A stretch of DNA of 64,000 nt from Psammoneis japonica (taxonomy: Eukaryota): the NCBI GenBank assembly GCA_008632985.1, contig QPGO01000187.1, forward strand, positions 62,001 through 126,000. The letters run 5' to 3'. The position numbers were made by a program, and so were the translations under genes. Below the pieces are notes generated by a model that was not told the origin of the DNA, did no database searches, and was given only the letters and a program-made list of their open reading frames with translations. Shown here piece after piece: positions 3,740 to 64,000 of this stretch (the first letter of the stretch is position 1; every line of letters starts with the position of its first letter).

Positions 3740-4179
3740 TGTTGCTACAATATAACAGTTGTTTGTTGATAAAATGACAGTGTTGTTGTTGTCTGTTGCG
3801 AGCACAGCAAAAATCGGAATGCAACCGAACAACGAAGAAAACCAAATTTGTGTTTTTGACAGACAATCACACAGATTTATTGCGCAAAGTCACGCGCGAT
3901 GCAGGGATGACACCTTTTTTTCATGCTTTTGTGTGTCTCCTTTTTTCTGCCTGTTGCGACTGGGTGAATGTGCCGCCACGCCCTCAGACACCACACCCTT
4001 CAGCCTTGATGAAACATGTGCCTCTCTTCAGGGAGGTGTGATCCTTGTTGGCATCTTTCGCTGCTCTGAGATTTTGGGAGATGACAGCGCACCCTTTCCT
4101 TGGTGCCCTGGGATGTGAAGCAACTGGCTTGGGCCTTCCCCCTCCCCTCAATCTTTGTCCAACTCATGCTTTGACTGTT

Positions 4180-4490
4180 GGAGCTTTGCAGCTTGCCAAC
4201 CAGCATGTGTTTGGCTTCACTGTCTCCTGACTCATGGCGCGGCTCTCACCACCAGCACATTGACAGAGCTGTCGTCATGTCGCCGGTTGCCATTGCGGTG
4301 TCAACTTGGCTGCAGAAGCTGAAAAGTGAGCACAAGACCCTCAACTCAATCCAAGATGTGAGCACAAACTTGCCTTGCTGTCCACAATTGCCAGCGCATC
4401 TCACACCACAACTCCGCCTGCCTGCATGATGAAAACCACCTCTGACACCCCCCAGTGGTCATGTTCCAACATTGATCTCATGCACATCAA
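4180..4490. repeat. Diverged ~300-bp direct repeat; partner at ~11525-11800
   Basis: gagctttgcagct..tcatgtc..aaaagtgagca..tcaatccaag..cacaaacttgcc..tgtccacaat..gaaaac is colinear in both copies. Many mismatches are TG versus CA swaps. Confidence 0.65.
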
Positions 4491-5414
4491 GCATGGGAGG
4501 ATCATGACAGTTGAAAACTGTGCCACCCAAAACCACATCAATTTTTCTGTCAACTCCCATGGTGCATGTCATTTAACTCAACCAGCAACATCAGAGTGCA
4601 CGATGTCGTGACATCTGCACACATGACAAAAATGTGTTGCCACATTGTAAAATCTGCTCATCTGCACATGACGGTTTTTGTCATTTGGTTGATCATCAAT
4701 CTGCTGCTGTTCTTCATGTTTGAACACAGATGTTTTTTAATTTTCGTGCTCTGCCTTTTTCACAACAACCAACGATCTTTGACGACAAGCCAAACATTGC
4801 AGTTGCATGCAATGAAATTTTCATCATGTAAAGTGTGCACCAATTGTTTGATCAATGACTGTGCTCCAATTTGCCCAGTCGTCCGCATCGTCCTCTTCAT
4901 TCCACATGTCTTGTCCGCTCTCTTGCAAGAATTTCAAACGTGCCGCTGCCGCGTTGGATGTTTCCTCGTCACCGTTCCAAAAAAGCCACACTGCATTTCT
5001 TGCATTTGGGTGAACATCATCGAGAGGAAGAGGTCCCTCGAAACGCTGAATCGTGTCGCTGCTCCCCTCTTGACGTCGTGTCATTGGCTTCTTTTTGTCT
5101 TTCTTCATTTTGCCCACCCCATTTTTCTCTTCCTTCCTCGTCTTGGCGCTGCCTGTTTTCACCGTCTCTGGCATCTTTCCATCCGAATCCTTCTTTTTCA
5201 TCGATCCCGTCGCCGTCGCCGTTGCCTTCATCTCTTGTTGTTGTTGTTTTCTTTTCTGTTGTGTCACTTTGTTTTGGATCCATGTTTCTGACTTCTCTCT
5301 GTGCTGTCTCCATTTCCGAATGTTTCTTTGTGATTGTTTGCATGCATCACTTGAAGGCACCCACGTGTTTTTCACGCACCTTGACGCGCATGTAGAAATC
5401 CATGTTGTTTTCCA

Positions 5415-8400
5415 GTGCATGCACCCTTTCTCCTGATGCTGTTCCACACAACATTTTCTTCCATCAATTCTGCACTCCACATTGCCCTTTCCCAGCACAA
5501 TCTCACATGGGATTTCCCTGGGAGAAGTTGCATGCACGTCTGGCAGGTTTTTGTGTTTAAAACTCCAAATCGCACCAGGCACGCATGCAACTTCTCCCAC
5601 ACACCACTCTGGCACATTTCCACAGAAACCAGATTTTTTGGTGTTGGAACAGCAACCATGGCGCCGCGTGACCTGTCGGTTGCCTCTCTGTTGCAAGACA
5701 ACAATGATTCCCACCTCGAGGAGGCCGCATTTGAATCTCTCTTTCCCAACGGTTTTGGAGTGATCGACAGCAACGAGCGGAGCCGTGTCAAAGCGACAAT
5801 CGAGATGGTGAAATCCAAGGTTCAGTTTCACCACGATTCCACTTGTGATCCCTCTCCAAATTGGATCGCACTTGCCCATGTGTGGCAAAAGTCGAAGGGC
5901 AGACCTCATTTTTTGTAGAACCAATGGTTGTGAACCGCATTGTTGCAAAGGAACTTGGGCACAAGAGCTTGCTGCACTTTCTTTCCGCAAAAGGATGGAG
6001 TTGTTCCAGTCAAGGTGCCAAACATCCTCATGCGTTGGAGTGTCGCCGTGCTCCCAAAGTGGAGGACATGAAAGTCGTCGGCGACAAGGCAAAATCAACA
6101 GACATTGCAACCAACATGATGGCAAAGATTTCCATGTTGTGCAAGCTTCTCCATGATCCCGGATTGTGCGACCCAAAGGGAGAGCCACTTGTCAAGCACA
6201 TTGAGCTGAGAAGTTTTGAAGGGAAGGTTTTGCGTCATGTGCAATGCCTTCACATTGGTTTTTTGATTCTTTGTGACAAGATTCTGCCGTGCGCACCTGA
6301 AAGGAGTGGTGATTGCAGTCATTGGCTGCACTCCCTGTTCGGCGAATGTGACGAGACATCGACTTGCATCAACTTTTTGGAAAATTTCCTGGCTCTTGGT
6401 CACCATGAGACGACCAAAGACGAATGTCCCATGTCCTTCCCTGCATCCAAAGGCAATGCTGGAAACTGTGTCAGTTCGGTGCATGGGCATGCCAAGTTCC
6501 AATTGCGTGTGCATGGTCATTTTGCAAAACTTGATCTGTCACATGCTGCAGAAATGATGAGATGCCGTGGCCCTTGTTGTCCTCCATTGGGCAAGCTGAC
6601 CCACAGAAACATCAAAGATTTTTCCCTTGACCCTCACTCTGTGTGGGTGGAAGAGGAAATTGGCAAGCCAAATCTTCCGTCCGACACAGTTGAGTGTCCC
6701 ATTGTTGTCATGCCGAGGAAACGTCTTCCGTTTGCCATCGTGAAGGACTTTAATTTCTCGTGCGGTTGTTCGGCAATCATCAACAACCTCGATGAGGTTG
6801 GTGCATGCGATTGCTTTTGTCGCGCTGTTGTGGCTGGGCATCAAACCGGATTCTCCTGTTTTCACCACTTGTTGTGCAACACAGATGCTGTGAAGCGTCC
6901 TTTTGTGGCTGGCGATCATGTCCTTCATTGCTTCAGAGAAGCTGCGAGGCTGTTCGGCAGCATTGCGGGGGATCGCAACAACCGACGCATGCAGAGCCCG
7001 GGACTCAATTTTGAGGAGGTTGGCAGAGTGCGGGACGAAACTCAACGGTTTGATGGATTTGCTTGTTGGCGGACTGGTTGTCATCATCGACCGGATCAAC
7101 GACAATGTTGGCAAGCCATCGTTTGACCACAAGGCAATCGAGGACATGTTCAAAACTGTGGTCCAAACATGGGATCATGCAGGTGCTGATCATGGAGAGT
7201 TCAGATGCATGAACTCTGTGCAGACATTGATGCTGTGTGGCATGGGGATCCATCCTCACCCTGACCTTCATAATCTTGCTGTCTGGTGGCCAAGTTGGGA
7301 GCGGCAAAGCAAATGGAGGAAATGAAGGTCCCGGTGGAGGAGCGCGATTTACTCTTGGAACAGATGGAGGGTGATTTTGATTTGGAAGACTGTGGAAAGA
7401 ATGGCCCAGAGTCTTTGCCATGTGACCTGAGTGCAGCTCGTGAAAAGATGGGAATCTGCGATGTCTTTTGTTGCGGACAGCATCTGTTGCTCTTGTTCTC
7501 TGATGGGCAATCAATGATCAAGCGGTTTGGAAGGCATGAATGGGAGCCAGTCCCATTCGTGTCGATTGATGAAGTTCAAGCCAAACTGGAACGGCAAAGA
7601 GAGGTTGCTTTTTCATGGCAATCACATTTGTTTTTTGTCTGATTGTGCTGACATTGTCACATTGATTTCTTGTTCTAACAGGAAGAAGGCTGCCGGTGAT
7701 TTGTTGTCATTCGCAATGAACAAAAGTGACGATTGCGAGGAGGAGTCAATTGACGAGAAAACAAGCGAACTTCCAACCACTCACATGGGTGAAGAGGACA
7801 AAAGTGAAGAGCCCATTGACGATGAGCACGACCAAGTTGCACATTGCTCCGAGGGTGAAGAGGACCACAGCGACTTGGGAGATTGTTTCGCAAGTGACGA
7901 AACCAACGGGGAAACACACAATGTGCTGTGGTTGGGGATGACCCGTGCGCTCAATGCAAGGCAACTATCTTCTCAAGAATCATGCTCTGAGAACGGGGTG
8001 GCCTTAGTGTCGTCCGACCAACACAGGCAAGACGAGGCCCGCGCAATGGCATTTGAGGAATCTAACAAAACAATCACAAACGTCATTCCAACAGTTTCTC
8101 TCCAAGATGGCCATCCTGATCTGCACTTAAATTGCAATGTGAAAGCAAGAGATTTCGTCAAGAGAGCCAAGCAGCAGTTTGAGAAACTTGTTGATTTCGA
8201 CAATCATGGGTTTGACCAAATCATGTTGGGCTGCTGCTGGATGCCAGATGGAGAGTGGCGCGACATTCATTTTGGGACGACTCAATTTTTCCAAAATCTA
8301 ATTGATCTTTGGGCCTTGCTCTCCAAAAATGAAGAAGGGGGGGGGACACAGTGATTCCCTTTGCTCTTGCAACCTTCTTCCAGGTTGTCAAACAATGGAA

Positions 8401-8857
8401 GAAATTGTCGGCTGTGTTCGACATGCGCACAATGGACAATGATGCTGCAAAGAGCCGTGAGAGTGTGTTCTTTGCAAGCAACCTTACAACCCAAGAACAA
8501 CGAGAATGGTGGTTGGGAAAGCCTTCCGATCAGGAAGAAGCTTGTCTTGGAGTTTCCGAAGAAGACATCAGAACAAACGCAATGGAAGGTGCTCGTGATG
8601 CACTGACCAACACTTCCTTCTGTCCTGTGTGGCCCAAACAAATGGGGCCTTTTCTTGCGCTTCCACTGCTCCTGGACATTCTTCATAAACCAAAACATTG
8701 TCCCCAATTGCCTCGACAGGGACAACCCGCAACTTGGGTGAGTGCTGAGTCTTCTCAGGCATTGAAAGCCAGTTGTTTCGTTTGTGATCAAGCTGCCAGC
8801 GACCAACCAAGTCTGTGTGCTGATGCCATTGCCTCATGGTTCTCTGGTCAATGTTGA
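5415..8857 (+). pseudogene. Degenerate, frameshifted ORF series of unknown function inside the TIR element
   Basis: Consecutive protein-like segments (5861-7126, 6903-7325, 7286-7642, 7527-8354, 8351-8857) with essentially no Tyr and excess Cys/His. Confidence 0.4.
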
Positions 8858-9290
8858 CAGGGCCTTCATCAAGACTCACACTCGTCGTCCTTGTCTTGTG
8901 GATGAGAAGGGAAAAGAAGAACAACATGCAAAAAATGGCGGGAAAATGGCAAACATTACATTGTCTTCCAGATTTGGATGATTCTTGCAGGTGTGGCATG
9001 TCTGCATTTTGATTTTTTATCTGGCATTTACAATGAACATTGTTCTTTTTTATTTGCTGTCAAAACAAAGGACATTGTCTCCGTTGAAACGCAATGACAG
9101 CCATGTCAAAAAGCAAGTTGGACTGTTCATTGTCACACATGAACACATTTTCAAATTTCAATGTTGCTGACAACAATTCATGCAATGTCACAGAGAAAAA
9201 CAGAGTGGCTGGCTGTCTCAACACGACCCAGACGACGGTTGCACTGTTGAACAGCAACACTGCTCTCATTGTTGCCGTGTGAAGATCAAG

Positions 9291-10544
9291 ATGTCGTCTC
9301 CAGCACCACCGGCAAAGAAGAGAAAGAAAAATAAGACCATCAAGCCAATGAGCCCAAGACTTCAGGCAGTGTTGAAGAGAACAGGCACGCAGGCAGTGCA
9401 TGGTGCATTGAAATCAGAAGCAGGGAAGGTGGCTGGAAATGATCTCTTTCCACAGGTGAATTTTCTCAGTCCATCAGAATTGGCAAGCAATGGGAGCATC
9501 TCAATGTTTGTGAAGAAACAGATTGCTGGTGGCAACATGGACACTTCAAATTGGTCAGGAACTTGGGAGGAATGGGCAAAAAAGGCGGTAAAAAGGCAAA
9601 TCAACAATCGCAGAAACATGGTGTGTTCGGCCATTGGGGCGGAGGCAATGGCCCGTGAGTCAAGTGACCAATGTGTGTGACTCAAGAGTTGCGCGCATCT
9701 CACAAGAAGATGACGGTGATGCTTTGTCCATGTGGGCGTTGTCACCAAGGAAGAGGGAAAGGAAAAAGAAAAGAAACTCAAGGCGGCAGTCAGGAGGAAA
9801 AAGCAAAGCAGGAAAAAGTCAAGCCGTGACAAGAATGAAGAGAATGACATCCCGTTTGTGCTGACATGGGATCCGTTCAGCCTGGACACTGTCACCGGCG
9901 GCAAATGAAGGAACAAGCAGGCACGCAAGTGGTTCTGTGATCACATCCTACCTCAAACCAAGCAAAAGCAGGCATGGAGCAGCGCCATCAAAACTGGGAA
10001 TGCACAGGTCTCACAGTTGTTTACGGCAGGTGACGAAGCTTTGGCGCCATTGGCCATGGAGAATTGTTGGCAGGTGTGGGCACACAGGAACAAGGAGGAG
10101 GTGGTGGAAGAATTGGGTGAGGAAATGGAGCCCAAAGAAACAAGGCCTGCCCCTCGGCACATGAAGCCAAAGAAACAATGAGTGTCTTGGGGAGACGATG
10201 GAATCATTCCGTTCAACGATTTACACAAAGAGGTGACGAAAGACAGAGACTCCAAGGAGGGCAAGGAGTTTGAAAAGTGGCATGCGGAGATCAAGAAAAG
10301 CGAGTGCGAGAAGTCTGGAGAAGCAAAAAAGAAGAAGAAGACAGCACCGACCGGCGATGCGGAGAAGGTGAAGGCAATGAACAGCCCAATGGTGGAGAGC
10401 AGCAGGGACGACAATGGCAATGACGATGAGCAGGAGGAAGGTGCAAAAGGCAAAACAAACGACGGAGGAGACGAGTCTGATGAAGACGAGTCCAATGAAG
10501 ACGAGTCCAATGATGATTGTCAGCTTGGTTCAAGAGAGTTGTAG
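9291..10544 (+). pseudogene. Degenerate transposon-accessory-type ORF (basic N-terminus, acidic tail)
   Basis: MSSPAPPAKKRKK (NLS-like), INNRRN, GDEALAPLAMEN, SWGDDGIIPFNDL..V..DR, and a DE-rich tail. It resembles an ORF family I recall from diatom DNA transposons; the assignment is unverified. Confidence 0.45.
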
Positions 10545-10912
10545 CAAGAAAATGTGCACACAGTTGACACAGCACTCGGTCATTGCGCACTGCAGATGCA
10601 ACAAGGAATTGACTTGGCCGATGAAATGTTTTTCTCATTTAAAACAATGTTCACGAAAATTGACAAACCAAGGTTTGTGTGGCAATGCAATCACGCACAG
10701 GCATGTGGCAACAAGGTGGAGGCAGAAATGGTGATGTGGACACAGTGAAAAACAGCATGCACAATTCTTGACAAGTTGTTGCAACATTGGTGCACCAAAC
10801 TTGCAACCAGAGGTTGGTCTGTCATCACATGACAACAATGTTTTTGCAACATTTTAACAAATTGTCATCATGTGAATCTGCACATTTTTGACATTTCGTG
10901 CACTCTGATGAA

Positions 10913-11574
10913 ATGATTGCTGTCAGGACAATCTCTCCTTGTGTGTCCAAGTTTGCTGCACTTCCAGCACTCAACCATCTTCTTCTTGTTCTGCACAAAG
11001 CTCATGCCCTCAGGTTTCTTGTTGGTCCCACAAGTGCCCAACACCTGCAACAATGCTTCCTTGGCTGAACTGGGGCACACATGAACCCTCAATGTGAGCT
11101 GCCAATGCAAGTCTTTCAAGACACATGCCAACAATCCTTGGCACCCTCCATTGACATTGCCACACCAACAACTTGTTCCTCTCTTTGCTGTGGATGTCAT
11201 CAGCACCCTCCTTGCTGAGCCCATTTTCTTTCTTGGCAACCTCTTCTGGGACAATCCTGCCATGGAATGGACCCTTGACAGCAGCTTCTTCAATGAATGG
11301 CAAGGCTCTTCAGAGATCACTTCTTTGCCCTCATCCAGCCAGCTCATTTGCCTTGATCTGCTTGCATGAAGTGTGCCATTGGATTCCTGTTTACCTCCTG
11401 ATCCTCATCTGCAGATTCCTCTCAACTTCTCAGCCCTTGTTTTTGTGGATTCCTCTTGAAATCCCAGTTCTCAATGACGGTGCTCCTTTGAGCATTGTGC
11501 TGTGACTTTTTGGCTTCTGTGTCAGAGCTTTGCAGCTCACCAACTGGTGTGCTTTTGGTCTTGCCATCTCCCAT
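10913..11574 (-). pseudogene. Retroelement gag/ORF1-like remnant with CCHC zinc knuckle
   Basis: CWKCSKLGHTRRDCP (C-x2-C-x4-H-x4-C) immediately beside the right TIR of the 4589-10910 element. Confidence 0.55.
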
Positions 11575-12858
11575 CTTGTTGCACAGGTTGCAAAATACAT
11601 CAACTCATGTCACCAGTTGCTGTTGTTGTGTTTGCTGGGGGTGCAAAAGCCAAAAAGTGAGCAAAAGACCCAAAACTCTCAATCCAAGCTGCAAACACAA
11701 ACTTGCCACATTGTCCACAATCATCGGCATGTTTTGCACTGCAAATTTGTCTGTCCACATGTTGAAAACTGCTTTTGACCCCATGTTCTGACATTGGCTC
11801 ACTGAGTTTGTCACCTGTGCACCCCGGCAGCAAGCGCATGTCTCCACTGCAACACTTGGCACTCAGCGCCACCAGCTGCTGGCACCCAACTGGCATCCTC
11901 CATGCACTGCACCATCCTTGTGTTGGGCTTGGCCAGCCTCAGTTTCGCTCCTGCAAATGATGTCTCCACTCGAGGTGTTCAAGCAGCCAGGGCTGCAATG
12001 CTGTTGTGGGCTCATGATTTGAGTGCCAACATTGTCCCCAGCTGTTGGGCCAGTGGCATGGGCCCTCTTCAAGCAGAGCCTTGACAATGCAAAATTTTGC
12101 CACCCATGTGCCAGCAGGTGGAAATTCTGTCCTTCACCCTGACACCAACATTCTGCTGGCACTCACTGAACCCTCAACTGGCAACCTTCTCACCCCAGCC
12201 CTCTGTCTGGGCCTGCCCTCTGCCCCCAGCTTGTGCCAGCTTGCATGCAGCACAGTGCATGTGGGGGGCACTGGCGCAGCCATCAGCCATGCCGCGCCAG
12301 CCCTTGGGTTGTTGAAAAGCAAAGCTCCCCCATTCTTGCAGTGGAACAGGTTGCTGCACTTGTGCCCAGATCATGCACTGCACAAGAGGCCAAGCATTGG
12401 GGGGGGGAAGATGTCCCACCACCCATTGACAGCTCAACATTTCATTTCTCTGCACATCAAATGAGTGCCCTGGCAACCAGTGGCTGTCGCTGCTTCCACT
12501 CATTCTTCCAAAGAGCTTCAGCAGCAAGCCAAGTGGACAGCCAAAATGCTCCCACCTCTCCCACCCTCTGGCATGCCGTGCCAGCTTTGGGATTGGGAAA
12601 GGGACCAACTGTGCTGGCAAAGTCCTGTGATCCTCCCATCCCTGCAATCCCAGTCTGCTGCACCTGATTCAGATCACTGCAAGAGGCTCCTGAACAACGG
12701 CAAAGTGACGCTCTGCTGCAGGCCCAGTCGCTGATCGCGCAAGCGTCAACAACACCCGCTTCACACGAAAACTTGAAATCCACTTCTGGCATAGTCACTG
12801 CCGCACCGTGATTGATTAAAATTCATTCTCGAAACAGGAGAGCAACTCTGCGCTGTGG

Positions 12859-15706
12859 ATGACAGAGAGAACGATGAAAGAGCGAACCACCAGTGCTGTC
12901 AAGCAGCAGCATGAACTTAGGGCATCTGCCGATGACTTTGTGCCGATACAGAAAGGCAGCGATTGTCGTTTAGATCCAAAAGCGTCCAAGTTCATGCCAA
13001 ATACCAGGGCATCAGGTGAGCTGTCAAAGCTGCGATTACCAACAGTGCCCGAGCAGACTCTTCGAGCCACATCAGAAGAGTTTGTACCATGTCCCAAAGA
13101 TCCGCTTGACGTACCCAGAGGCAGTCTGCTCAAGGTTTCAGCTGAAGAGTTCAAGCCTCGAACGCAGTCTCTCAATGTTGAAAGATCGGCAGGTCTGTCT
13201 CACTCTGCAACAACATTTATCCCCAAGGAGCCTCAACGACAAATTTGCCGCTTCTTTTCAAAGGGTGCGTGTCGTAAAGGCATAACGTGCCCCTACCTTC
13301 ATGATTCAACCATTGCAAGACGCGGTGTCGACTTGGAGCAGAATAACAACGACAAGCAGGAACAGGGTGAAAGGACTACATTCGACATGGACGGAGGAGT
13401 AAAGGTTGTCTTTGGACCAGGTCGGAGGTGCTGAAGCTTACGTTAGGAGTAAAGGAAGAAAGTCGTACAGTTGTCGTGTCGGGGTTACCATTTGGGGTTG
13501 AAGAGCAAGAGGTAGAAGCTCGACTCTCATCATACGGGCCTTGTCAAGCCTATCAGTTCAGACGAGTCAAAACTTTGGAGCAGTTTATGCAACAGCGTCT
13601 TTCTCCGAAGGGGCTGCAGCCAAAGCAGCGGTAGAAGCATTGCATGGTAGCTCAGCGGCTTCTTGGATAGGCTCTACCGCGTTGACACAAAGGGCTAAAA
13701 CAAGGAGCGCAAAAGAGCAGACGAGGTCATCCTTGTCCTCTGTATCGGTTATAATGAAAGGGTCGCATCCTTCAAAAAGTGGCATGAGCTTGAGGATCCA
13801 GTGGTACGCTCCATCTCGTGTGCCTGGGTTCATTTTCATCAACGTTACCAAGCAGCAAAGGCAGAGAAGGTGCTTAACGGAAACGAACTAAGCGGACGCA
13901 GATTATCTGCAAAGCTCCAACGTTCTTCGTATAATCAAACAACAAATTTTAGCGTGTGGGTGGGAAATCTAGCTGAACGAATAACCGCGGAGCGCCTATC
14001 AGTTTTGTCCAAGCGTGCTGTAAATGCCGCATAAAATCGGTGTCCTTGGGGGATCTGCCCTTCTCAGAGCGAGACGGGCCACACATTGTCCAGCGTCTTC
14101 TTAGTTCCCATGGCGGTCCAATAGTGTTTTTTGAACACAGTCAACGGAAGATGACGGAGGACAGAAACGGAAAGCTCTGGTGAAGTTCGCGAACCCCGCT
14201 GATGCCGAACGTGCATATCGCTTTTTTGAGAAAAGAAACAACATTCAGGAACTTGGTGGAAGCAGACTCTTTGTAGAATGCATTTTCAGCGTAAAGTTTT
14301 CTGTGCCTAGCCTCGCAGCAGATGCTATCATGAAGGAGATTAGCGACACCCTTAAGCAATACCCTTCTGCGAAATGTAACGTCTTCAAGAACGATTCGTC
14401 CATGATGGCGTCAATGTCGATCCAGACAACCGAGAAAAATACCATTGCTTCCATAACCAAGATAGTGAGCCCCGTGATTGACGGGGAGATAGTGCGGGGC
14501 AACCACGGCCAAAAAATTTGGAACGCCACATATTGTCCCCACGATTTAGTCAGTGCGTGTACAATGTCCTTGGTTGGGAATCAGTGTTTGTTTTCTGTGA
14601 CACGAGAAGACGAGAATTACGAGTACTCGGCCGGAGACTCGTCGTAAACGAATCATTGAAACATTGGTTGAGCATTGCTTGGATGAGACCAGAGAAACTC
14701 AGCTGTACCAATTTCTCGAGAAGAGTTTGAGGGCATTTTAATGAGGGGGCGATCGGTGTTGGACAAAGTCATCCGTTCGTCGGGAGTGACAAAGGTGTCA
14801 CTCGACATTTGCAACAGATCGCTGCTGGTTGAAGGTGATACGGAAGGGGTGAACCGGGCAAGGCAGTGCGTGACAAAACTTTTACAAAAGGCTGGGCGGA
14901 CGGAGAATCTAGTAGCGTGCTCCTCGGAGTGCCCAATCTGTCTTTGCCCAATTGATGGTAGCCAGGACACAGTTCATCTGTCATGCAAACACAGCTACTG
15001 CAACGATTGCTTCAAAATGTGGCTGACAGGCTCAAACAGCTGTCAATATCCACTCACTTGCCTTGAAGACAACTGCTCCAAAACGATTTCGATCATGGAT
15101 TTACGTGTACATCTCGAACCTGAACAGGTGTCGCGTCTACTCACCACAGCCTTTGTTGACTATGTTCGAAAGAACCACTCGTCGCTACAGTTCTGTGTTT
15201 CGCCAACATGCGCTGGACTGTATAGGATCAATAAAGACAGCAAAATGTCTTCATGCTCCTCTTGTTTGATCGACATTTGCACCGCTTGCAAGGCAAGTCA
15301 TCAAGGTCTAACTTGCAAACAGTATGCCTTAGCAACACTTCCGCCTGATCGATTGCGCTTCAAGATTGTTGACGAAATTTTGACGTTACGCTGTCCTCGA
15401 TGCAAGCAAGCTTTCCTTGACTTTGATGGCTGTTTTGCGGTTTCTTGCAGCGGATGTCCTTGCAACTTTTGCGGATGGTGCCTCAAAGACTGCGGCAGCG
15501 ATGCCCACCCCCATGTAAAATCCTGCCCCAACAAGGAGGCCGGAGCCGATTCCTACTTTGGCTCGAAAGAAATGTTCCAAACGGCACAAAACAAAACGAG
15601 AAGAGCCAAGCTACAGGGGCTGCTTGAGACGTTGAATCCACAAGAAAAGAAAGACGCCCTAGAATCCATCGAGCAAGACTTGAAGGACTTGGGTCTCTCT
15701 CTTTAG
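12859..15706 (+). CDS. RBR (RING-IBR-RING) E3 ubiquitin ligase with 5 PAM2-like motifs, a CCCH zinc finger and RRMs; multiple frameshifts
   Basis: CRFFSKGACRKGITCPYLH (CCCH). RRM-like segments TVVVSGLP, SVWVGNLAE and KALVKFANPADAERA. RING1 CPIC..CKHSYCNDC, IBR FCVSPTC..CSSC..CTAC..H..C, and RING2 CPRC..DGC..C..C.NFCGWC. At least 6 frame changes between 13430 and 14740. Confidence 0.8.
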
Positions 15707-54713: not shown

Positions 54714-55231
54714 TCCGACTTTTGTTGGCGGAAAATCGCAGCACGTTCACACCATTCCAAAATATGCCAGTGCGTAACGAAACGTCAGTGTATTGCACAT
54801 TAGACATTGTCTATTATAACAGCTAAAACCTGTAAACTATCCAATACGACGTGTGTTGAACCTACTCACGGCAAGAGTGACTCTGTTGCGCACGACGCTG
54901 TCTTATGTCTTTCACCAAAGATTCTTATGGCAAAATAAGCGGTTGACGCTTTGCGACTTAGCTGACACTTAGGAGCCCAAAGCGATTGAAAAGTCACATC
55001 TGTGTAGCTACAGCTCATAATCTCGAGACTACACCGGTGCAGAAGAGAGAGGAAAGTTCTCATCACACAAGAGCTCACTAAGTCTGAAGGAAGAAGCTGA
55101 AATAATACGTCGCCCTTTGCAGCAAGTTAACTTCCGATAATGCCAAAATGCTGCCGTGGCACTACATGGGTAGGCTACGACAGTCATCGCAACACCTCCG
55201 CTCGTTGATGTAGCCATCGGCTCTGTCGAAC

Positions 55232-56464
55232 TTATTGGCTGTTGGGCCAGCCCATGATTTCACGAAGCTTTGGTTCCAAAAAGTCAGCCACCCGCTCTTG
55301 ACCAAGCCGGTTCTTGTGGCCGTCACAACCAATATCACCATCTCCCGACACAACCGTGCCGTCGCATGGAACAAAAATGTATTCGGTCGGAATGGTTGCA
55401 CCATGCATAGTCTGAAAGGATTCGACCGCGTATTGTATGTACGGACAAGGCCGACAACGATCATTGTTTGGATCTCGGCTCAGTTCCGTCGGGTCCCCTT
55501 GCCCACATATACTCACAATTGTTGGAATTTCATCGTTTGTATATGGTTCGGCAATCTGTAAAAGAAACTTTTGATATGCTTGAACAAAAGTCTCGTTGGA
55601 AGGTACCTCCTCTTGGTGGTTATAATCATTTCCACCAAGAGAAACAATCACAAGGTGTGGTCGCCACTCTTCAAAGTCCCAAAAAGGCAGCGTCTCTGTC
55701 TGAAGGGTTCGGTTGTAATAATCCTGTATTGTTTTTTCACCAAGCGCCACTGGCAAATTCGCAAACGCATTCTGCGTCAGTCCAATGCCTGATATGGCTT
55801 GGACGCTCACCTCGGCATTCAAACGTTTTCCCAAGACGCCAGGATATGCAGAGTCGCAATTGTTGTATTTCCAGGGTCGAACGAGATGGTCACATGCTTG
55901 CGGAGTACCATCCACACAAAAGCCTGCCGTATCACTGGCACCAATAAAACCAATCCGGTGTACCGGCAGTTTTGGTGGAAGCGAAAGAGTCGCGACATCG
56001 TCATCCATTTCTACTCCATAGAATTCAAGCACCGACGTGGCTGACTTGCCCAAACCATTGCCATAGGGTGCCGCTTGTGTCAATTTTGTCAGTGTGACGG
56101 TGTGCATTCCGGTGCCTTCAATTCGAATGCCGTATTTATCCTTCTCTGGCCGAAACGAATTACCTTTCAGAATCGTTGTTTGCTCCAGTTCGCCGGTGAC
56201 TGCGTTGGTGACGACTGCGTTGAGCCGCACCCGATGAAGTTTTACTCGGAGGGTAATGACGCCATCTTCTGCAGTCATGTTTATGTTGAATTGCACTCTG
56301 CTGCACGGCCAGTCCGACCTGACAACACCATCATCCTCAAGCTGTTGCCACCGGCCTGCAAAACTGAAATTCTCTATGTTGTTTGCAGGATAAAAGGTTC
56401 CTTCAACAGCAGCACTCAGGGCAACAACAAGACTTGTAACAGCACACACAGTTGAAATCCTCAT
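55232..56464 (-). CDS. Secreted SGNH/GDSL hydrolase, carbohydrate esterase CE2-like (410 aa)
   Basis: Signal peptide MRISTVCAVTSLVVALSAA, N-terminal FAGRW..DWP domain, and blocks IGFIGASDTAG, AISGIG, SLGGNDY, GCDGH. Confidence 0.88.
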   Translation of the reverse strand: MRISTVCAVTSLVVALSAAVEGTFYPANNIENFSFAGRWQQLEDDGVVRSDWPCSRVQFNINMTAEDGVITLRVKLHRVRLNAVVTNAVTGELEQTTILKGNSFRPEKDKYGIRIEGTGMHTVTLTKLTQAAPYGNGLGKSATSVLEFYGVEMDDDVATLSLPPKLPVHRIGFIGASDTAGFCVDGTPQACDHLVRPWKYNNCDSAYPGVLGKRLNAEVSVQAISGIGLTQNAFANLPVALGEKTIQDYYNRTLQTETLPFWDFEEWRPHLVIVSLGGNDYNHQEEVPSNETFVQAYQKFLLQIAEPYTNDEIPTIVSICGQGDPTELSRDPNNDRCRPCPYIQYAVESFQTMHGATIPTEYIFVPCDGTVVSGDGDIGCDGHKNRLGQERVADFLEPKLREIMGWPNSQ

Positions 56465-56752
56465 AGTAACACAACGACTAGTTCCTATCTTGAAGAGCAG
56501 AAATGTTGGCGGTGTATGTCTGTTGGTAACATCATGAGGATGGTTTGTGCGATGCACGCAACAACACAGCACCGTCCGCGAATTTTTATGAGTTATGTAT
56601 ATTTATATGAACACAACGGAAATTTTTGTCAATGGTGTTATGTAGTTTTTAACGGTTATCCGTTAAATTTAGTCTTGTTTGGCGAAGAACATAATACTGT
56701 TTATGCATTATTTATTCATGTGCCTTTCTATGTTTTGAGTCGTGAGGGCTGT

Positions 56753-56783
56753 TGATGACTTATGATGACTTATGATTACTTAT
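56753..56783. repeat. 10-bp minisatellite (TGATGACTTA)n, left part; continues at 62170-62262
   Basis: The same unit lies on both sides of the Gypsy element. Right-hand units mostly read TGATGACTTG or TGATGACTTT. Confidence 0.9.
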
Positions 56784-56945
56784 TGCAAGGTCTAACGAGA
56801 TAAAGACTTCAGTGATAACAAAATTGTGAGCGAAAGACCGAGGTAACGAGGGTCGCTTTCAGCGAAGCCCGTTACAACGGCTTCCGTTATATCTAATAGG
56901 TTCATTAATACTATATATCAGAAAAATAAGGTGCGAGACACTGCA
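56784..56945 (-). repeat. 3' LTR (TpA retained)
   Basis: 149/162 identical to 62008-62169 by hand alignment; adjoins the PPT. Confidence 0.95.
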
Positions 56946-56959
56946 CTCTTCCCTTCCAT

Positions 56960-58182
56960 GATTCGAGTGTCGAGAATCATGCGGGACTCAAAAAATTTAA
57001 ATTCCAATGGATGAGGATAGAAGGGAAACCCAAATGTTGGGGAGAAAACCCTTAACCTCAGGTATGATACGGTACGACGCGATGTATATTCAATCGTTCT
57101 GTCACATGAGGTGTACGTTGGACCGTAAGTGTGCCGTTGGCGTGTGCTTGAACGACAGGACATGGACCGTGAGCTCGTGGCTCGAGCTTGGTTGGGTCGA
57201 CAGCCTTGAGTAGAACTTGTCCGCCAACTTGAAAATCGTAGGATCAGCGTTTAGCGTTGGCTCGATGGAGATTCGCATTAACAATTGTTTGTCGGTGTTC
57301 TTGAATGGCAGCAAGATCGGCTGGGACCGGCAAGTCAAGAATCATGTCATGTTGAAAAACCACAGCACCGGGTGAAATCTTGAGAGCACGAGAAACCGCA
57401 CATCGCATTGCATGCATGGCAGTTGCCAATGCATTGTCCACTAGTTGATTGGCCTGCTCAACATTCTGTGGAGGACAAACATGAAGCAAAGTGCGCAAGA
57501 TGTTTCCAACAGTTTGATGCATGCGCTCGCGTGCCGCACTGGCTTGTGGATTTCGCGACGCAGTCGGAGCGTCTTCTACTCCTGCTCGTTGCAATGACAA
57601 TTGAAAGTCCTCTCCAATGAATTCTCCACCATTGTCATGGATGCACCGGTTGGGATGAGGATGACGAGACAACCAACAATTTTCAAATTGTTGAGCAATG
57701 TGAGACGAGGTTTTGTTGTCGATGCGAACAAGTTCAGTCACATTCGAAACGGCGTCAATACAAGTCAAAGCGTTGAATTCGATTTCATGGTTTTGAATTT
57801 CAATTTTCCAGGGACCGATGAGGTCAACCGCAACTTCCGTCCATGGTGATAAAGGCGCTTCCCGTTCAGGCAGGTCCCCATGTCCAGGGCCCAAAGTTTT
57901 CAAACGTTGACAATCAGCACAATGAAATCCTTCACAGGATTGACGAAGGGCAGGATGACAGAAATGTGCGCCAACAGTGGAATGCATTCGGTGCACTCCT
58001 GCATGTCCCAAAATCCCATGACACCATCGTATGATGTCGTGCAGCAACGCCGTTGGAACACAAATTTTCCACGCAGTCGGAGGATCATTCGGTCGAGCAC
58101 GACAACAAATTACAGGACGCTGATTCACATGTTCCACAACGAAGCGTTCTGGACATTGTTGTCGCACATTGTTCAGCTCCAC
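56960..58182 (-). pseudogene. Gypsy integrase
   Basis: H-x4-H..CADC zinc finger, VAVDLIGP, HDNGGEF and NPQASAARERMH. Confidence 0.9.
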
Positions 58183-58206
58183 GTCGACGAATTGGCATTC
58201 TTGAAT

Positions 58207-60540
58207 TCATTGCACAGTTGCAGGGTTTTGCATTTCCTCGAGAGAAGGACAGTTCAAAAATGATTCACACAATTCGGGGTCGTCCACGACAGAAGAATAA
58301 AATGGAGATGGTTCTTCACGACGACAGGAAAAATGAGACACACTGTTTTGGTCGTCCAGTTCTTCTTCATGCGGTGGCACAGCAGGGTCGATCGTCTTAA
58401 AATCAATCAGCTTGCCCTTGTCAGGAGCACACTTCCCTTCCGCAGGAGGGTCCACACGCGGCAATCTTGAAAAACAATCCGCCAAGAGACCATCTTTGCC
58501 ATCAACGCATTCGAAAGTTGGGGCAAAATCTTCCAAGAAGAGTCGCCACCTAAGAACTCGTTGAGAATTGAGCGCACGAAAGGTGAGATTTTTATGATCC
58601 GTAAAAACAGCACAGTCAGCTCCAAATGACATGCTTCGAAATTCTTTGAAACACATTGCCACCGCCAACAATTCTTTTTCAATCGTAGAGCAGTTCTGTT
58701 GTGCTGCGCTGAGTTTCCGGGACCAGTGAGCCACTGGTTTCCCGTCTTGCATAATTGCGGCTCCCATCTGACAGTCCGAAGAGTCAGCACAAATGTGGAA
58801 TGGTTTGTTGTGATCCGGGTGGACCCAAAGGGTGTCGTCCAGCATCAAGGTTTTCACATCTTCAAAGGCTCGTTGACATTCAGGGGTCCATTCCAACTTG
58901 CTCTTGCCTGTCAACTTTGTGAGTGGAGCGAGCACGTGTGAGCGACGAGGCCACATGTTGCGACAATAAGTTGCTGCACCGACAAACGATCGCAGTTGCG
59001 TCACAGTTTTAGGTGGTTGCATTCGTAGCACCGCTTCCACTTTCTTCTTCCACGGTCGGACTCCTGCAGGCATGAGCCAATGGCCTAAAAAATCCGTCTC
59101 TTGGACACACCATTCGCACTTGAGTGGGTTAATTTTCAGATTGTTCTCTTCTAGTCTGGATGACAGCTCATCGAGTCGACGCATGTGAGCATCAAACGAA
59201 TCATCAAATTGAGCAATGTCATCGATGTAAGTTTCAACATCGACTCCTTTTGCCACTTTTTCAATGATGGCTTGAGCAATGTCGGGAGAGGTTTTCAAAC
59301 CCATGGCCAATCGACAACATCGAAATTTTCCAAACGGAGTAACAACAGCACACAAATCCTTGGATTCTTCGTCAAGCTCGATGTGACAATAAAACACAGT
59401 GAGGTCCAACTTGGTCAAGTGCTTGCATCCCGAGCGTCGGTGAATAACGTCTTGAATGATCGGCAGAGGACAGACCTTTCGCTTGAGCACCTTGTTCAAC
59501 TCACGAAAATCGGATGCCCATTGAACTCGTCCATCCTTTTTGGGAGTTGCAAAAGTTCCGGCTGCCCATTCAGTTGGTCCCACTGGTTCCAGTGCGCCAA
59601 CATTACATGGATGTTGCAGTTCTTTCTTAAAAACGGCTTCATCCCTCTTGGACACTTCACAAGCCTTAGAATGGAAGGGAACAGCATTGGGATCAACTTC
59701 CAAGTGAACAGTCTCATGCGGACATTTGCCAAGCATTCCATCAAAGAGGGTTTCATGCTTTTCAAGCACTGCCTGTAGCTCATCACGTTGTTCTTGAGTT
59801 AAGTGAGTTTGAGCTTGCGCCACTTTCGCGGATGATGCTTTCTCGCACTTGGCGTCCATCACAAAAGATTGTCCGAAGGCTTCCTCATCGTCTTCGTCTT
59901 CTCCGTCGTTTTCCAGTGCATCCAACCAATTCTGAACTGAGTTCCAATGATTGGATTGCTTCATTGGGATCGACGTTTCCAACCACTTTGTTGTTCCAAA
60001 TCGAAAATCAAGCACGATTCCGGCTTTCGACAAAAAGTCTTGTCCCAAAATTAAATCATGCTTGCATGGGGCATCAAAAACTTGAGCCGCAATGCTGTCG
60101 ACTTGTTTTGACTTGTCAAATTCTGGCAATGTCAAGTCCTTCATAATGACGCATCGGGAGGATTCACATCGTCCGGCTGCCGTCTGAAAGCTCAACCGTC
60201 CTTCATCGTTCATGGTTGGATTCGCTCCCTTCGGCAAAACTCGAGAATGAACAAGAGTGTCAGCACCTCCTGAATCCAATGGCACTCGCAACACTCGCTC
60301 ACTCTCTTGATTTTGAATGGCACGCACCGCCATCAACGTCGTTGGCACCACATTCAATGGTTTGGGAGTCGCAGTTTTAGGGGTTGGCTCAGCGCACTCC
60401 AAAACGCCGCCCAATTTTTCTTCATTCACAGCATGAGATTCCATCAGGTCTCCCACATTGTCATCAACATTAAAACATGTGTTTTCTTCACGATCACACG
60501 AAACATAAAAAGATTGAGCGACACGCTCTGACTCGGGCAC
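58207..60540 (-). pseudogene. Gypsy pol: aspartic protease, RT, RNase H
   Basis: LDSG, DFRELN, TPFGKF..MGL, YIDD, FLGH, ADSSD, SRKL..EKELLA and FTDHKNL. Confidence 0.95.
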
Positions 60541-60552
60541 TTCCGTCCCTTG

Positions 60553-61774
60553 TCAATTACGCCAACTTCGTTGGCCTTGATGGGTGCGACCGTTCTGATC
60601 GCATCCATTTCCGCCTCGCATCTCACGAGGCCCTCCTTGATCAAAATGGTGCGACTCCATTTGCCAGCCACCAGGGGGAGCTGCTCCAGCCGGATTTCCA
60701 CAGCCTTGGGCATCACCGTTGGCTTGGGTGCCGTTTTGATTTTGGCAATAGGATCCATTCCCTTGAGAATTCTGGGAGTCATTGTAATTGCCGTAACCTC
60801 GGCCTCCACATCCTCCTTGATTGCCATGACTGCCACGTCCTCGACCTTGGAAGTTGCCACGACCTCCTCGACCTTGGGGTCCTCTGCCTTGGCAGTTTCC
60901 TCGGCCTCCACCACGACCTCCGCTACGACCGCCACGGTCGGACCTCGGTCGATGGTTTTGGCTTTCTGGATTCAAAATGCAATCCTTCCACTTGTGGTCA
61001 TGATTCGCATGCACCGGGCATCTAGATTCTGGATCCGTTCCACCACTGTTGCCACGAGAGCGTCTTGAAGCTTGAGACGAAGCACCATTGCTTTTCCTCT
61101 TCTTGTCCTGCTTCTTGTTGCTGCTCTTGTCAGCAAAAGATTTCTCATTGTTCGTGTGACTGATGATCTCAGCGAGAGCATCGTTTGCTGTCGCTCGTCC
61201 TGCTCGAGTGCACATCTCACGCCACGGACGAGGGAAGCTGTCGAATGTCATCTTTTTCTTCTGAGCTTCGTTGACTTGAGGAGCATTTCCCGGAAGTTTG
61301 TTGGAGTGCCGAATCAAGGTTTCCATGCGATCTGCATGCGCCCGCACTTCAGATTTGAATGGTTTTTTCAAAGTTGGCAAATGTTCAATCATCACATCAT
61401 GCGCTTCATCATCACAATAAGACAAGTAAAAACGATTGATTTCCTGATCAAAACGCTCGACAGTTTTATCGGCATCGTCAATTGCATTGGTCAAGTTCAC
61501 CCACTTGTCCTCTGCAGCATCCGCAAGCACTTCCTCGAAATTTTCGAACAACTCCTCGCCAGTGGTGCACTCCAATTTCACAGCAATTTTACGAAAACGA
61601 TCCTCAACGAACAACAATGCTTCAATGCCATGAGTGCCATCAAAACGCGGACACTTTTTTGTACGAGTGCTACCGTCATCATACGATTGGGTCAATTTCA
61701 CGTCCTCCAAGTCAGAATGCTCAAATTTAGCTTCACAGCCAATGCAAGGCTCCTTCAACGATTCACTCATCATG
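60553..61774 (-). pseudogene. Gypsy gag
   Basis: Open frame upstream of pol with CPVH..HKWKDC knuckle and RGG-rich tail. Confidence 0.85.
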
Positions 61775-62007
61775 AAAAAGGGAATGCAATTGTTCAACAG
61801 TCCTTTCCAGGGACTCCACCTTTGACTCCAAATGATGCACTCGGCTCGCCAAATTCTGTTCGTGTCGTTTACGTTGTTGCACTTGTTTCTGGTGCTCAAC
61901 AGCCCAAACTGCTGCTCCTGCGCGCAGTTCTCTTTTCTCACGTTTGGTCAATTTGTTTGCATTGTTCCCAGTCTCCACCCAGTTCTTTGAATCGACTGTA
62001 ATTACAG

Positions 62008-62169
62008 TGCAAGGTCTAACGAGATAAAGACTTCAGTGACAACAAAATTGTGAGTGAAAGACCAAGGCAACGAGGGTCGCTTTCAGCGAAGCCCGTTACA
62101 ACGGCTTCCGTTGTGTCTAATGGGTTCATTGGCACTACATGTCAGAAAAACAAGGTGCGAGACACTGCA
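62008..62169 (-). repeat. 5' LTR (TpA converted)
   Basis: Direct repeat of 56784-56945. Confidence 0.95.
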
Positions 62170-62534
62170 CTTGTGATGACTTATGATGACTTGGGATTGC
62201 TTGTGATGACTTGTGATGACTTTTGATGACTTTTGATGACTTGTGATGACTTGTGATGACTTCACTTAGGAAGTCGAGTGTGCGGTTCCCGTGCGAAGGA
62301 CAGCCAGCTGTCTGTCTGTGCAAAAATGTCATCAACACGAGAAGACGGAAAGGACGCGTTGATGTTGACTGGCATCAACTATGGCGTTCAAAACAACAAT
62401 CAGCAAAGCCATGAAAGTAAAACCATGATTACCACAATGAAGAATTCAACTACTTTAGGTGCTGCAAATGTGAGCGTGCGGCCAGAAGCACGCGCAATTG
62501 GGCAGTCTGAGGCATCGTCAACACAAGTTGCGAG

Positions 62535-63026
62535 TCAGTTCTTGTTTTTCTTGGACTTGATGAGCCAGTGAGAGCGCGACAAACAGTCCCTCTTCTCCTG
62601 ACAAATGTGATCTCGAAATGCTTTCAACGGGAAAGCCGCGCAAGCTTGGCGGGTTGCTCGTGGCTTCTCCGGCTCGATCTTTGTCTTGTCGCGAATCGAC
62701 GTGTCGACGTCAATCTTGAGCCACCTCTCCACCTCGGATCCCTGCCAACGAGGATAGCCTCGGAAGGCATGCGGTGCAGGAGGATGCAAACGCAGGTCGT
62801 GCAAGAAATCAGCCCTGTCTTGTTTGGCACGGGCTTGCCCGGCAGCGATGGTTTTCCGAAGATTGTTCAGGTTGCTCTGAAAACGCTCACAGGGGAATTC
62901 TTGAAATTCGGGGCACGTTTGGCAGATGGCTTTGGGTCCCATTCTGTCAACCTTCTTGGAAATGATGTCTTCCCCAAGAAGCATCTTTGCCTTGCTGTGC
63001 TTCCAACCTTTTTTTCCTCTTGCCAT
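62535..63026 (-). pseudogene. Degenerate two-repeat ORF (W..S.A..LL..D ... R.EY..F....FR.HIYQE type)
   Basis: WKHSKAKMLLGED..PEFQEF..RF and WQGSEVERWLKID..AFPLKAFRDHICQE. I recall this family as repeat-associated in diatoms; unverified. Confidence 0.5.
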
Positions 63027-63421
63027 GGTCATCGTTCCCTGTTGGCTCTGTCGTCTTGGTTCTGCTGTGTGCTGTGGACTGGCCAGGAAATCGCCAAAAA
63101 TTGTTTTGCCACAAAACTTTGGAATTTGAGTGGGCGGCACATTTCTACGTGCACACTAGATTTTCGGTGCATTTCTGCGAAACTCAGTGAGAAACAAAAA
63201 CCATGTGGAAGCGCACAGGCAGAGATTGCCAGGTTAACCCGGCAAAAAAATTTGAGTTTGAATCCCTCTTGTTGATCCTCGAAGGAAAATGTACATTGTG
63301 TTGTCTTTGCAAACACACATGGGAAAAACATTTCCCACGCTTGGCACGAACAAAATTTTGGAGGTTTAGCGAGGCAAAGTTCTCGCTCAAGTTCTTTCTT
63401 CATTGCATGCACAGCAGCTCA

Positions 63422-64000
63422 ATGAGCAGCAGTGGCAGTCAAAACCAACAGCTGCAGCAGCCACTTTCCTCTCCATCGCCCAACAGGACCAGGAGATCCA
63501 TCGGAAGCAGACGTTGCGACTCTGTTCCCGCAGCTGTCAACCAAGCAATCATTGAATCGCTGCTCCGTGATGGGACCGTCTTGTTCTCCGACTTTCACAA
63601 CAACGAACTTTGCGGATCAGCCGACAAGTCCGAGGAAAGAAGAGCTAGAAACCAATTTGACGTCATCCGCCGCTGGCTGAACTGTCAACCCAATCATTTC
63701 GACAACTTGGTCAGAGATCTCGAAGCAATCGAAGACACGCCGGAACCGGAAGAGCCTTCACCAGCAGCCGCACCAGCAGCGGTGCCAGCAGCCGCACCAG
63801 CAGCAGAACCAGCAGCATCAACACGAAGAGCCATGGCGAGCAAGTGCTGCATTGTTCCATTTTTTACAACTGTTTTGCATCTCTCACCATCACGTCGCCT
63901 TCTTCTTTTGTTCTTTTGCAGATGTCTTTGATGGTGCCAACGAGACGGCGGAGCTCCTGGCCATCGAGATCAAGGTCAGGACATTCAACTTAGTCCGACC
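63422..64000 (+). pseudogene. Divergent ORF with PAAA repeats, partial
   Basis: MSSSGSQ..PAAAPAAVPAAAPAAEPAA, with a possible intron at ~63845-63920. TpA-depleted. Confidence 0.35.

Follow-up and report, generated by a model that had tools for sequence, protein, structure and literature searches.

Sharply bounded domains nearly free of TpA in a diatom genome point to TpA-specific hypermutation of integrated DNA

A 64,000-nt stretch of the genome of the diatom Psammoneis japonica (NCBI GenBank assembly GCA_008632985.1, contig QPGO01000187.1, positions 62,001 to 126,000 of the forward strand; hereafter the window, numbered from its first letter) contains domains in which the dinucleotide TpA has almost vanished and TpG and CpA have accumulated. 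Comparison of a GDSL-lipase-like gene with its converted copy, of the two long terminal repeats (LTRs) of a single Ty3/gypsy retrotransposon, and of the Pol protein of that element with its relatives shows a TpA-specific transition process that acts at the DNA level, after integration, on both strands independently and with a preference for a 3′ pyrimidine (TAT, TAC > TAG > TAA). The process is nearly complete, and it follows sharp domain borders rather than element ends or homology. We are highly confident that such a process is real and operates in situ. Taken as a whole, the observations are likely best explained by a TpA mutator confined to domains, with a recruited adenine deaminase as the leading candidate.

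The depletion is visible in the ratio of observed to expected dinucleotide counts (O/E). Per kb, TpA O/E is 0.00-0.19 in 4-13, 22-23, 26-27, 30-35 and 45-53 kb and 0.13-0.26 in a sixth block at 57-64 kb, against mostly 0.45-0.79 in the genes that separate the blocks. Mapping by single TA sites places the borders at 3878/12792, 21413/23145, 25781/27263, 30139/35294 and 45008/53580, with the sixth block running from ~57130-57280 to 64000, and the shift in TpA is completed within ~100-300 bp. When pooled, the five strong blocks (25,850 nt) hold 91 TA, with O/E values of 0.05 for TpA, 0.43 for CpG, 1.75 for TG and 1.70 for CA. The corresponding values are 0.16, 0.88, 1.28 and 1.50 for the weak block at 57280-64000 (6,721 nt, 71 TA), and 0.53, 0.94, 1.21 and 1.22 for normal DNA (30,465 nt, 1,109 TA). 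An earlier inspection by a model that saw only the letters (the sequence-only reading) had reported TpA-poor, TG/CA-rich blocks with abrupt borders, ordinary TpA in the intervening genes and a less complete depletion in 57.3-64.0 kb; all of this was recovered here, at matching coordinates. In normal DNA, TA sites are separated by a median of 17 nt and at most 224 nt; in the blocks the median is 196 nt. The longest gap free of N, at 45008-46228 in block 5, is 1,220 nt long, for which the probability at the background TA frequency is ~2e-20; a TA-less gap of 1,478 nt spans a run of N at 51126-51372. The books of gain and loss balance: per kb, the blocks lack 32.8 TA and 27.4 CG (60.2 summed) and have gained 63.9 TG+CA. 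A search of the window for tRNA genes, as possible chromatin barriers at the borders, found none. The host assignment agrees with the open reading frame (ORF) of a SWEET transporter (17471-18406, minus strand), whose best matches are diatom proteins at 45-56% identity, those named being from Striatella, Nitzschia and Eucampia.

The direction of change can be read from a gene and its copy. The intact GDSL-lipase-like gene (55190-56572, minus strand, ORF 55232-56572; Pfam Lipase_GDSL_2 at E 4e-5, below the curated cut-off) keeps a TpA O/E of 0.59-0.70. At a distance of 3.3 kb, block 5 contains a converted pseudogene copy (51873-53662, minus strand), which matches 55190-56562 with 86.5% identity over 1,362 aligned nt. 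At the 45 TA sites of the gene, the copy reads CA in 18 cases and TG in 20 (38/45 together), retains TA in 2, and shows neither outcome in the remaining 5 (TC 2, AA 2, TT 1). The 74 CG sites of the gene read TG 31, CA 19, CG 23 and AG 1. The copy holds only 5 TA, and at 3 of these the gene reads CA or TG. Transitions of A occurred at 37/88 TpA, compared with 11/215 ApA, 15/229 CpA and 11/161 GpA, that is, at a rate of 0.42 versus 0.05-0.07 by context and 37/605 in all other contexts combined (Fisher p 2e-17). The change of A to G thus depends on a 5′ T, as the sequence-only reading had proposed. TG and CA outcomes follow one another in random order along the paralogue (20 runs versus 19.5 expected for 37 events), which indicates single events and not processive runs on one strand; on the same count, clustered APOBEC-like editing was rejected. 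Two further features belong to this gene family. An older second fragment lies in block 5 at 46564-46891, matching within 55190-56562, and at 51611-52001 there are three tandem copies, 91-93% identical, of a 131-nt unit from the end of the GDSL-like copy, with its counterpart in the gene at 55190-55318.

A Ty3/gypsy element on the minus strand provides a second comparison. It consists of a left LTR (the 3′ LTR, 56784-56947), an internal part with gag-like, RT/RNase H and integrase ORFs (56948-62007) and a right LTR (the 5′ LTR, 62008-62171), and has Pfam matches to RVT_1, RT_RNaseH, RT_RNaseH_2, rve and Integrase_H2C2. A tblastn search with gypsy proteins found no second gypsy copy in the window. 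The two LTRs of such an element are identical at integration, and here they differ at 13/164 positions. In the right LTR, the 15 TA of the unconverted left LTR are retained in 5 cases and replaced by CA in 5 and by TG in 5, and of the 10 CG, 8 are retained, with 1 TG and 1 CA. All 12 differences of the TA or CG type are one-sided, with TA or CG on the left and no site reversed, and the 13th is an A-to-G change between two converted TA. Set against one change at ~114 positions that are neither TA nor CG, the 10/15 changed TA imply a per-base rate at TpA roughly 100-fold above background, a rough figure since it rests on a single background event.

The surroundings of the element show where the change was made. 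A 10-bp satellite with the unit TGATGACTTA flanks it on both sides, so the insertion took place within the array and left a putative target duplication of 5 bp. On the left (56736-56783), the satellite is unconverted; its units keep TTATG and the putative target-site duplication reads CTTAT. On the right (62172-62262), CTTGT stands in the putative duplicated target, and most units read TTGTG, TTGGG or TTTTG. Across the left LTR and the adjoining ~200-300 bp of the internal part, TA is as dense as in normal DNA; it becomes sparse at ~57.13-57.28 kb, from where the element is converted rightwards. The one-sided LTR differences, the converted satellite and a border that lies inside the element together indicate that the change was made in chromosomal DNA after integration and was not imported from edited RNA. 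The affected domain is therefore not the element itself, and it includes adjoining host DNA.

Outgroups allowed us to polarise the changes in Pol. Among the 120 best protein relatives (40-61% identity), tyrosine makes up at least 2.4% of residues (median 3.6%) and cysteine at most 2.8%, and none of the 120 has lost tyrosine; the window Pol has 0.6% Tyr and 4.0% Cys. In all five metagenome contigs with Pol relatives (46-55% identity), TpA O/E is 0.45-0.71. Of 17 columns with a conserved Tyr (codon TAY; at least 80% of relatives with Tyr), the window Pol has Cys (TGY) at 11, His (CAY) at 3 and Tyr at 3, so that 14/17 were lost, whereas 208/236 other conserved columns were kept (Fisher p 7e-10). 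Other changes in Pol are those that TA conversion predicts, namely Ile/Met to Val, Leu to Pro/Ser and Val to Ala. The paralogue pair, the LTR pair and the outgroup-polarised replacement of Tyr by Cys or His therefore agree on the direction that the sequence-only reading had given, from TpA to TpG or CpA on both strands. Despite the lost tyrosines, the Pol frame at 58210-60552 (minus strand) is open over 781 codons and its YIDD motif, including the active-site Tyr, is intact. As TA conversion makes no in-frame stop, open frames can outlive function.

The TA sites that survive carry a further signature. Relative to normal DNA, survivors in the strong blocks are enriched for TTAA (4.55-fold), CTAA (2.94), CTAG (1.85) and GTAA (1.76), and depleted for ATAA (0.56), CTAC (0.48), ATAG (0.30), GTAC (0.28), ATAC (0.15) and ATAT (0). 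The bias in flanks is strong in these blocks (chi-square p 4e-17), and the weak block follows the same trend (p 3e-4). Polarised hits point the same way, falling on 17/35 sites with T as the 3′ neighbour, 15/28 with C, 2/7 with G and 3/16 with A (pyrimidine versus purine, p 0.026). By our fit, the survivor values correspond to two half-sites, one on each strand, that act independently and whose effects multiply, the 3′ neighbours ranking T > C > G > A for conversion. At Tyr codons, where the coding-strand A always has a 3′ pyrimidine, the ratio of Cys to His is 11:3 (p 0.057). Additionally, in five repeat pairs within depleted DNA, 19 of 42 adjacent double mismatches are CA versus TG, as results when an ancestral TA or CG is converted independently in each copy.

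Loss of CpG shares the borders of the five strong blocks. In the paralogue pair, G transitions are found at 49/146 sites after C and at 23/501 elsewhere, and 50/74 CG of the gene read TG or CA in the copy. The co-occurring CpG decay that the sequence-only reading described is thus confirmed for the strong blocks. The two losses are nevertheless separable: the weak domain combines a TpA O/E of 0.16 with a CpG O/E of 0.88, and the right LTR has 10/15 TA changed but 2/10 CG. The likeliest cause of the CpG loss, judging from its sequence pattern, is ordinary decay of methylated CpG, as a second and slower process. Such decay of 5-methylcytosine yields the same products, TG and CA, but it cannot remove TpA, and the weak block sets it apart from the TpA process in time or place. 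If CpG loss does reflect methylation decay, greater age or heavier methylation would set the strong blocks apart from the weak block, and the domain at 57280-64000 is probably younger than the strong ones.

To judge whether the bases are real, contigs assembled without a reference from public sequencing runs were compared with the window. The main run (X1) is dated 2019, has no library type on record and is possibly the sample behind the window assembly; its contigs, rather than raw reads, were used. It contains 87% of sampled words of 27500-37000. A second run (X2) covered 17/30 bins, and a third (X3) gave no matching contig. Over the TpA-free block 4, X1 contigs at 29951-30870 (920 nt), 30898-32107 (1,210 nt) and 32134-34475 (2,342 nt) show 0, 4 and 9 differences respectively, or 13 in 4,472 nt, at a depth of 49-66 compared with 53.7 for the flanking gene. 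Contigs that long and deep would need accurate reads, which makes misreading of modified bases unlikely.

Contigs of a public run thus support the converted bases for 30-34.5 kb, but not everywhere. The sole X1 contig over 24448-25623 (depth 85.9) differs from the window at 21 places and reads TA at no fewer than 9 of them; of the 15 differences listed there, 9 are window CA/TG versus contig TA and 2 are window TG versus contig CG. This mismatch could be due to an allele, a paralogue (the depth is 85.9 versus ~54) or a strain difference. Over the 40 window/X1 differences listed, the window reads TG/CA against a contig TA in 16 and against a contig CG in 8, the window reads CG against a contig TG/CA in 2, no window TA faces a contig TG/CA, and 14 are of other kinds. 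At four positions (23026, 23034, 23202 and 23214), the TG/CA of the window stands against TA in some to most of the depth from repeat copies, so the repeat family itself is not TA-free. We take the TA-bearing contigs to stem from paralogues or alleles in which conversion has gone less far than in the window, although unsupported window bases would look alike at these places. Understood as less-converted copies, they hint at a fourth case of the same direction and at recent activity.

What the blocks contain is less uniform than their composition. Block 1 (3879-12791; TpA O/E 0.02-0.10, CpG 0.12-0.75 per kb) has a zf-CCHC (zinc knuckle) match at 10871-11404 on the minus strand (Pfam, E 4e-5) just inside a degenerate pair of direct repeats (4275-4388 and 11605-11721, 76-78% identical, with 4 CA/TG double mismatches), and is, from these sequence features, probably an old LTR retroelement on the minus strand. 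Three stretches are high-copy, at 20.7-23.3, 26.0-27.3 and 34.0-35.3 kb, with a summed X1 contig depth of ~500-2,700 versus ~54 for the flanking gene. They take in block 2 (21414-23144; TpA O/E 0.03 at 22-23 kb, depth ~500-2,500) and block 3 (25782-27262; TpA 0.10 and CpG 0.47 at 26-27 kb, depth ~890-1,070), between which lies a partly depleted stretch (23145-25781, TpA 0.18-0.37). Block 4 (30140-35293; TpA 0.04-0.12, CpG 0.14-0.34) is mostly near single-copy depth, with present-day X1 depth near single-copy over 30.0-34.0 kb. Block 5 (45009-53579; TpA 0.00-0.19) holds the two decayed GDSL-like gene copies and the run of N, and the weak domain reaches the end of the window.

Pfam searches covered 88 ORFs of at least 110 aa and 150 of the 154 ORFs of 65-109 aa. 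Among the former, the strong blocks gave only the zinc knuckle and a weak GDSL match, the rve/integrase match being from the weak block; the latter gave chance-level matches only, and no transposon domain was found in the other 236 block ORFs scanned. The longest ORF of block 1 (455 aa, 4827-6191, minus strand) has no homologue at E of 1e-3 or better. The statement that every block that could be identified is a transposon or a duplicated gene thus stands for the gypsy element, the GDSL pseudogene copy and the high-copy stretches, while the remainder, apart from block 1 with its zinc knuckle, gave none in the Pfam and homology searches. So few matches are expected if conversion has altered ~6% of positions and left no TAA or TAG stop. 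Loss of these stops also explains why the strong blocks carry long, spurious open frames on both strands, such as the 455-aa ORF just mentioned and 5849-7123 (plus strand, 425 aa), neither with a family match, by which gene callers would be misled.

A signature of this kind is already described in one unrelated alga, the chlorarachniophyte Bigelowiella natans. According to the accessible text of a mutation-accumulation study (Mettrop et al., bioRxiv 10.64898/2026.01.13.699255, April 2026), two integrated viral regions accounted for 231 of the 302 nuclear mutations. Each of these 231 was an A-to-G or T-to-C change on TpA; their rate was ~6e-7 per site per generation, and they arose in a subset of the lines. 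Of the two regions, the larger one is both single-copy and transcriptionally silent. The same text reports 124 genomic clusters of windows poor in TpA and rich in CpA+TpG, an enrichment of reverse-transcriptase and DDE domains among low-TpA coding sequences, and a proposed ADAT2-like adenine deaminase. To go by these parts of the preprint, the likeness is close. [quoted passage not shown] The B. natans target is silent, and we infer the same for the domains here.

The differences concern the host, the target and the extent. B. natans is a rhizarian with giant-virus and virophage inserts, whereas the window comes from a diatom, a stramenopile, and holds a retrotransposon, repeats, a pseudogene and a satellite; Pfam found no viral domains in the scanned ORFs of the window. 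TpA O/E is 0.05 here versus 0.45 in the B. natans virus region. CpG decay accompanies TpA loss in the older domains here, while the words CpG and diatom are absent from the preprint text that was accessible. The evidence from B. natans is real-time and ours is comparative. Relative to that text, three observations are new: conversion favours a 3′ pyrimidine, hits show no clustering by strand, and one border falls inside an element. The signature is therefore known in kind, and what the window adds is a different major lineage, nearly complete conversion, and transposon-type and duplicated DNA as its target. The sequence-only reading had known of no description of the phenomenon in diatoms. This holds for diatoms in the literature searched, which yielded no diatom report of TpA hypermutation (~1.7 million PubMed Central articles and most subscription journals lay outside its coverage), but not in general, given the 2026 account of B. 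natans. One article that mentions both diatoms and hypermutation, PMC9258296, is unrelated as far as its accessible text goes.

Two better-known systems offer partial parallels. Repeat-induced point mutation (RIP), as found in Neurospora and other fungi, likewise inactivates transposons and duplicates by dense, dinucleotide-specific transitions and leaves regions of skewed dinucleotide content. However, RIP makes TpA from CpA, whereas here TpA is destroyed and CpA and TpG are gained, and RIP requires duplication and strikes both members of a pair, whereas here one member was left unconverted and a non-repeated flank was hit. The APOBEC/AID enzymes share the logic of a context-specific deaminase that disables foreign or mobile DNA. 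They differ in that they target C, not the A (or T) of TpA, and in acting during reverse transcription, while here the change occurred in chromosomal DNA after integration and there are no strand-coordinated clusters.

We propose that discrete islands of transposon-derived, duplicated or inserted DNA, probably silenced, would undergo mutation of TpA to TpG or CpA at the DNA level. The domains would be heterochromatin, for which the borders shared with CpG decay serve as the sole proxy. An enzyme recruited to them, most likely a deaminase, would turn adenine in a T-A context into hypoxanthine, which would then be copied as G. The outcome would be irreversible inactivation, with Tyr codons changed to Cys or His, many other codons altered, and TAA and TAG stops lost. 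In older domains the slower second process would also have removed about half of the CpG, giving the same TG and CA products. By analogy, this would be the same kind of process as the TpA-only hypermutation of silent viral DNA in B. natans. Adenine deamination read as G appears to be the simplest chemistry, and it is the one also proposed there; for this chemistry in itself we would claim a little less than an even chance.

Its closest competitor starts from the other base. Thymine in a T-A context could be modified in silent chromatin, for example by TET/JBP-type oxidation to 5-hydroxymethyl- or 5-formyluracil, and sometimes be copied as C. Because TpA is palindromic, the signature would be identical; the paralogue, LTR and context data fit equally well, and the flank preference can be restated as a 5′ purine before the T. 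In dinoflagellates, TpA and TpC are sites of 5-hydroxymethyluracil enrichment, and 5-formyluracil forms mispairs with G. To our knowledge, no such modification of thymine is known in diatoms. Nothing in the window speaks against this chemistry; a literature search linking TpA, 5-hydroxymethyluracil and dinoflagellate found no paper, and the B. natans authors, in the text available, favour adenine deamination, as a proposal. We regard thymine chemistry as unlikely, but as an alternative to be taken seriously. The sequence-only reading had placed the process closer to RIP, as a reverse-RIP-like defence against repeats. Of this, the erasure of TpA in bounded domains stands and the trigger does not. 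A homology-triggered variant, in which paired duplicates would both be mutated, at TpA where RIP targets CpA, would agree with several blocks being repeats or duplicates and with the right end of block 5 (53580-53830) lying near the end of the gene-copy homology at 53662. It would not account for the sparing of the paralogue, 86.5% identical and 3.3 kb off, and of the left LTR, for a border inside an element, for conversion of the non-repeated satellite flank or for the near single-copy depth of 30.0-34.0 kb, and the main target in B. natans is, by the same preprint text, single-copy. We therefore consider homology triggering very improbable.

The remaining explanations are weaker still. Error-prone patch repair by a DNA polymerase eta-type enzyme, set off by T:G mismatches after deamination of 5-methylcytosine, was among the candidates of the sequence-only reading, and it would explain why the five strong blocks show CpG decay together with TpA loss. 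The signature of polymerase eta is WA with many transversions. Here, ApA was spared (0.051 versus 0.42 for TpA), transversions are rare (5/45 at the TA of the gene), and TpA loss runs ahead of CpG loss both in the 57-64 kb domain and in the right LTR. This candidate can be given very little credence. A sequencing or assembly artefact, in which a modified base in silent DNA is misread, would be in line with the contig that reads TA over 24448-25623, with the missing record of the X1 library type and with the run of N, which implies a scaffolded assembly. Against it, reference-free contigs reproduce the TpA-free block almost letter for letter at ordinary depth, and conversions are all-or-none per site, evenly split between TG and CA and different between repeat copies, which is the pattern of fixed mutations; an artefact thus seems no more credible than polymerase eta. 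Finally, ADAR-like A-to-I editing of retroelement RNA followed by reverse transcription would suit the one affected element that is a retrotransposon, and ADARs favour a 5′ U according to the discussion in the B. natans preprint, as far as that text is accessible; foreign DNA that is intrinsically poor in TA is a related idea. But one insertion has LTRs that differ from each other in a single direction, a satellite and a pseudogene that is not a retroelement are converted, both strands are equally hit, and relatives of the element have normal TpA. Both ideas are ruled out for the three polarised cases in the window, and beyond these we assign them a negligible probability.

Several points nevertheless weigh against a domain-bound adenine mutator as the full account. 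A-to-G on one strand is indistinguishable from T-to-C on the other at a symmetric TpA. In most of blocks 1, 4 and 5, the direction of change is deduced from composition, mass balance and a few internal repeats, and the transposon identity of most of the strongly depleted DNA is putative. We infer both the silenced chromatin and the deaminase. The X1 run is perhaps the window's own source sample and was compared as contigs, not as raw reads, and over 24448-25623 X1 does not confirm the letters of the window. The signature is also seen in none of the 125 relatives from other sources, so there is no sign from them of a wide spread in diatoms, with the qualification that predicted-protein sets favour intact copies.

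Other features of the window adjoin or separate the domains. The genes with normal TpA between blocks include an RBR-type RING/IBR protein (14741-15706), the SWEET transporter, an AAA-ATPase-like protein (27990-29555, its match under the Pfam cut-off) and an adenylate/guanylate cyclase-domain protein (40158-42929). For an ECM29-like gene (ORFs 270-3401 and 3377-3889, minus strand), the left border of block 1, where the last TA is at 3878, lies only ~230 bp upstream of the N-terminus-coding region, so the converted domain must begin at the promoter of the gene or include it. An X1 contig (depth 69.8, with 32 letters on its shorter side) joins 20928 to 27468 and omits 6,539 bases, and another joins 21271 to 23341; another haplotype or copy may thus lack the island with blocks 2 and 3, which would then be an insertion. 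Farther along, 35453 is joined to 39888 by two X1 contigs that omit 4,434 bases, and the X1 contig over 35698-39872 has a depth of 29.9, about half of the ~54 in neighbouring single-copy DNA. The segment, which contains a 1,261-aa ORF (35722-39507) with no Pfam match, may be present on one haplotype only.

There are practical and biological consequences of these observations. Converted transposons become invisible to protein-domain searches and their domains fill with spurious long ORFs, while the choice between TG and CA drives the copies of a family apart and confounds both repeat annotation and the dating of insertions. For the mutator, the window sets constraints: it acts on integrated DNA, on either strand and without processive runs, prefers TAT and TAC over TAG and TAA, is independent of CpG decay, and keeps to borders that may fall inside an element and leave a homologous copy 3 kb away unconverted. 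Genetically tractable diatoms exist, so candidate deaminases or thymine-modifying enzymes could be tested. One possible hypothesis, which we put forward tentatively and think rather doubtful, is that diatoms carry a chromatin-coupled and homology-free adenine-editing defence that shares its origin with that of the rhizarian, as an old trait of stramenopiles, alveolates and rhizarians or an older one, and that together with decay of 5-methylcytosine it drives every TpA and CpG to TpG or CpA. If this is true, the asymmetry between the window and X1 (16 versus 0 among the 40 listed differences) would point to a process that is still at work and limited to one haplotype or copy. If the pattern proves genome-wide, a second and distant algal lineage with TpA hypermutation would make the process a candidate for a widespread eukaryotic genome defence.

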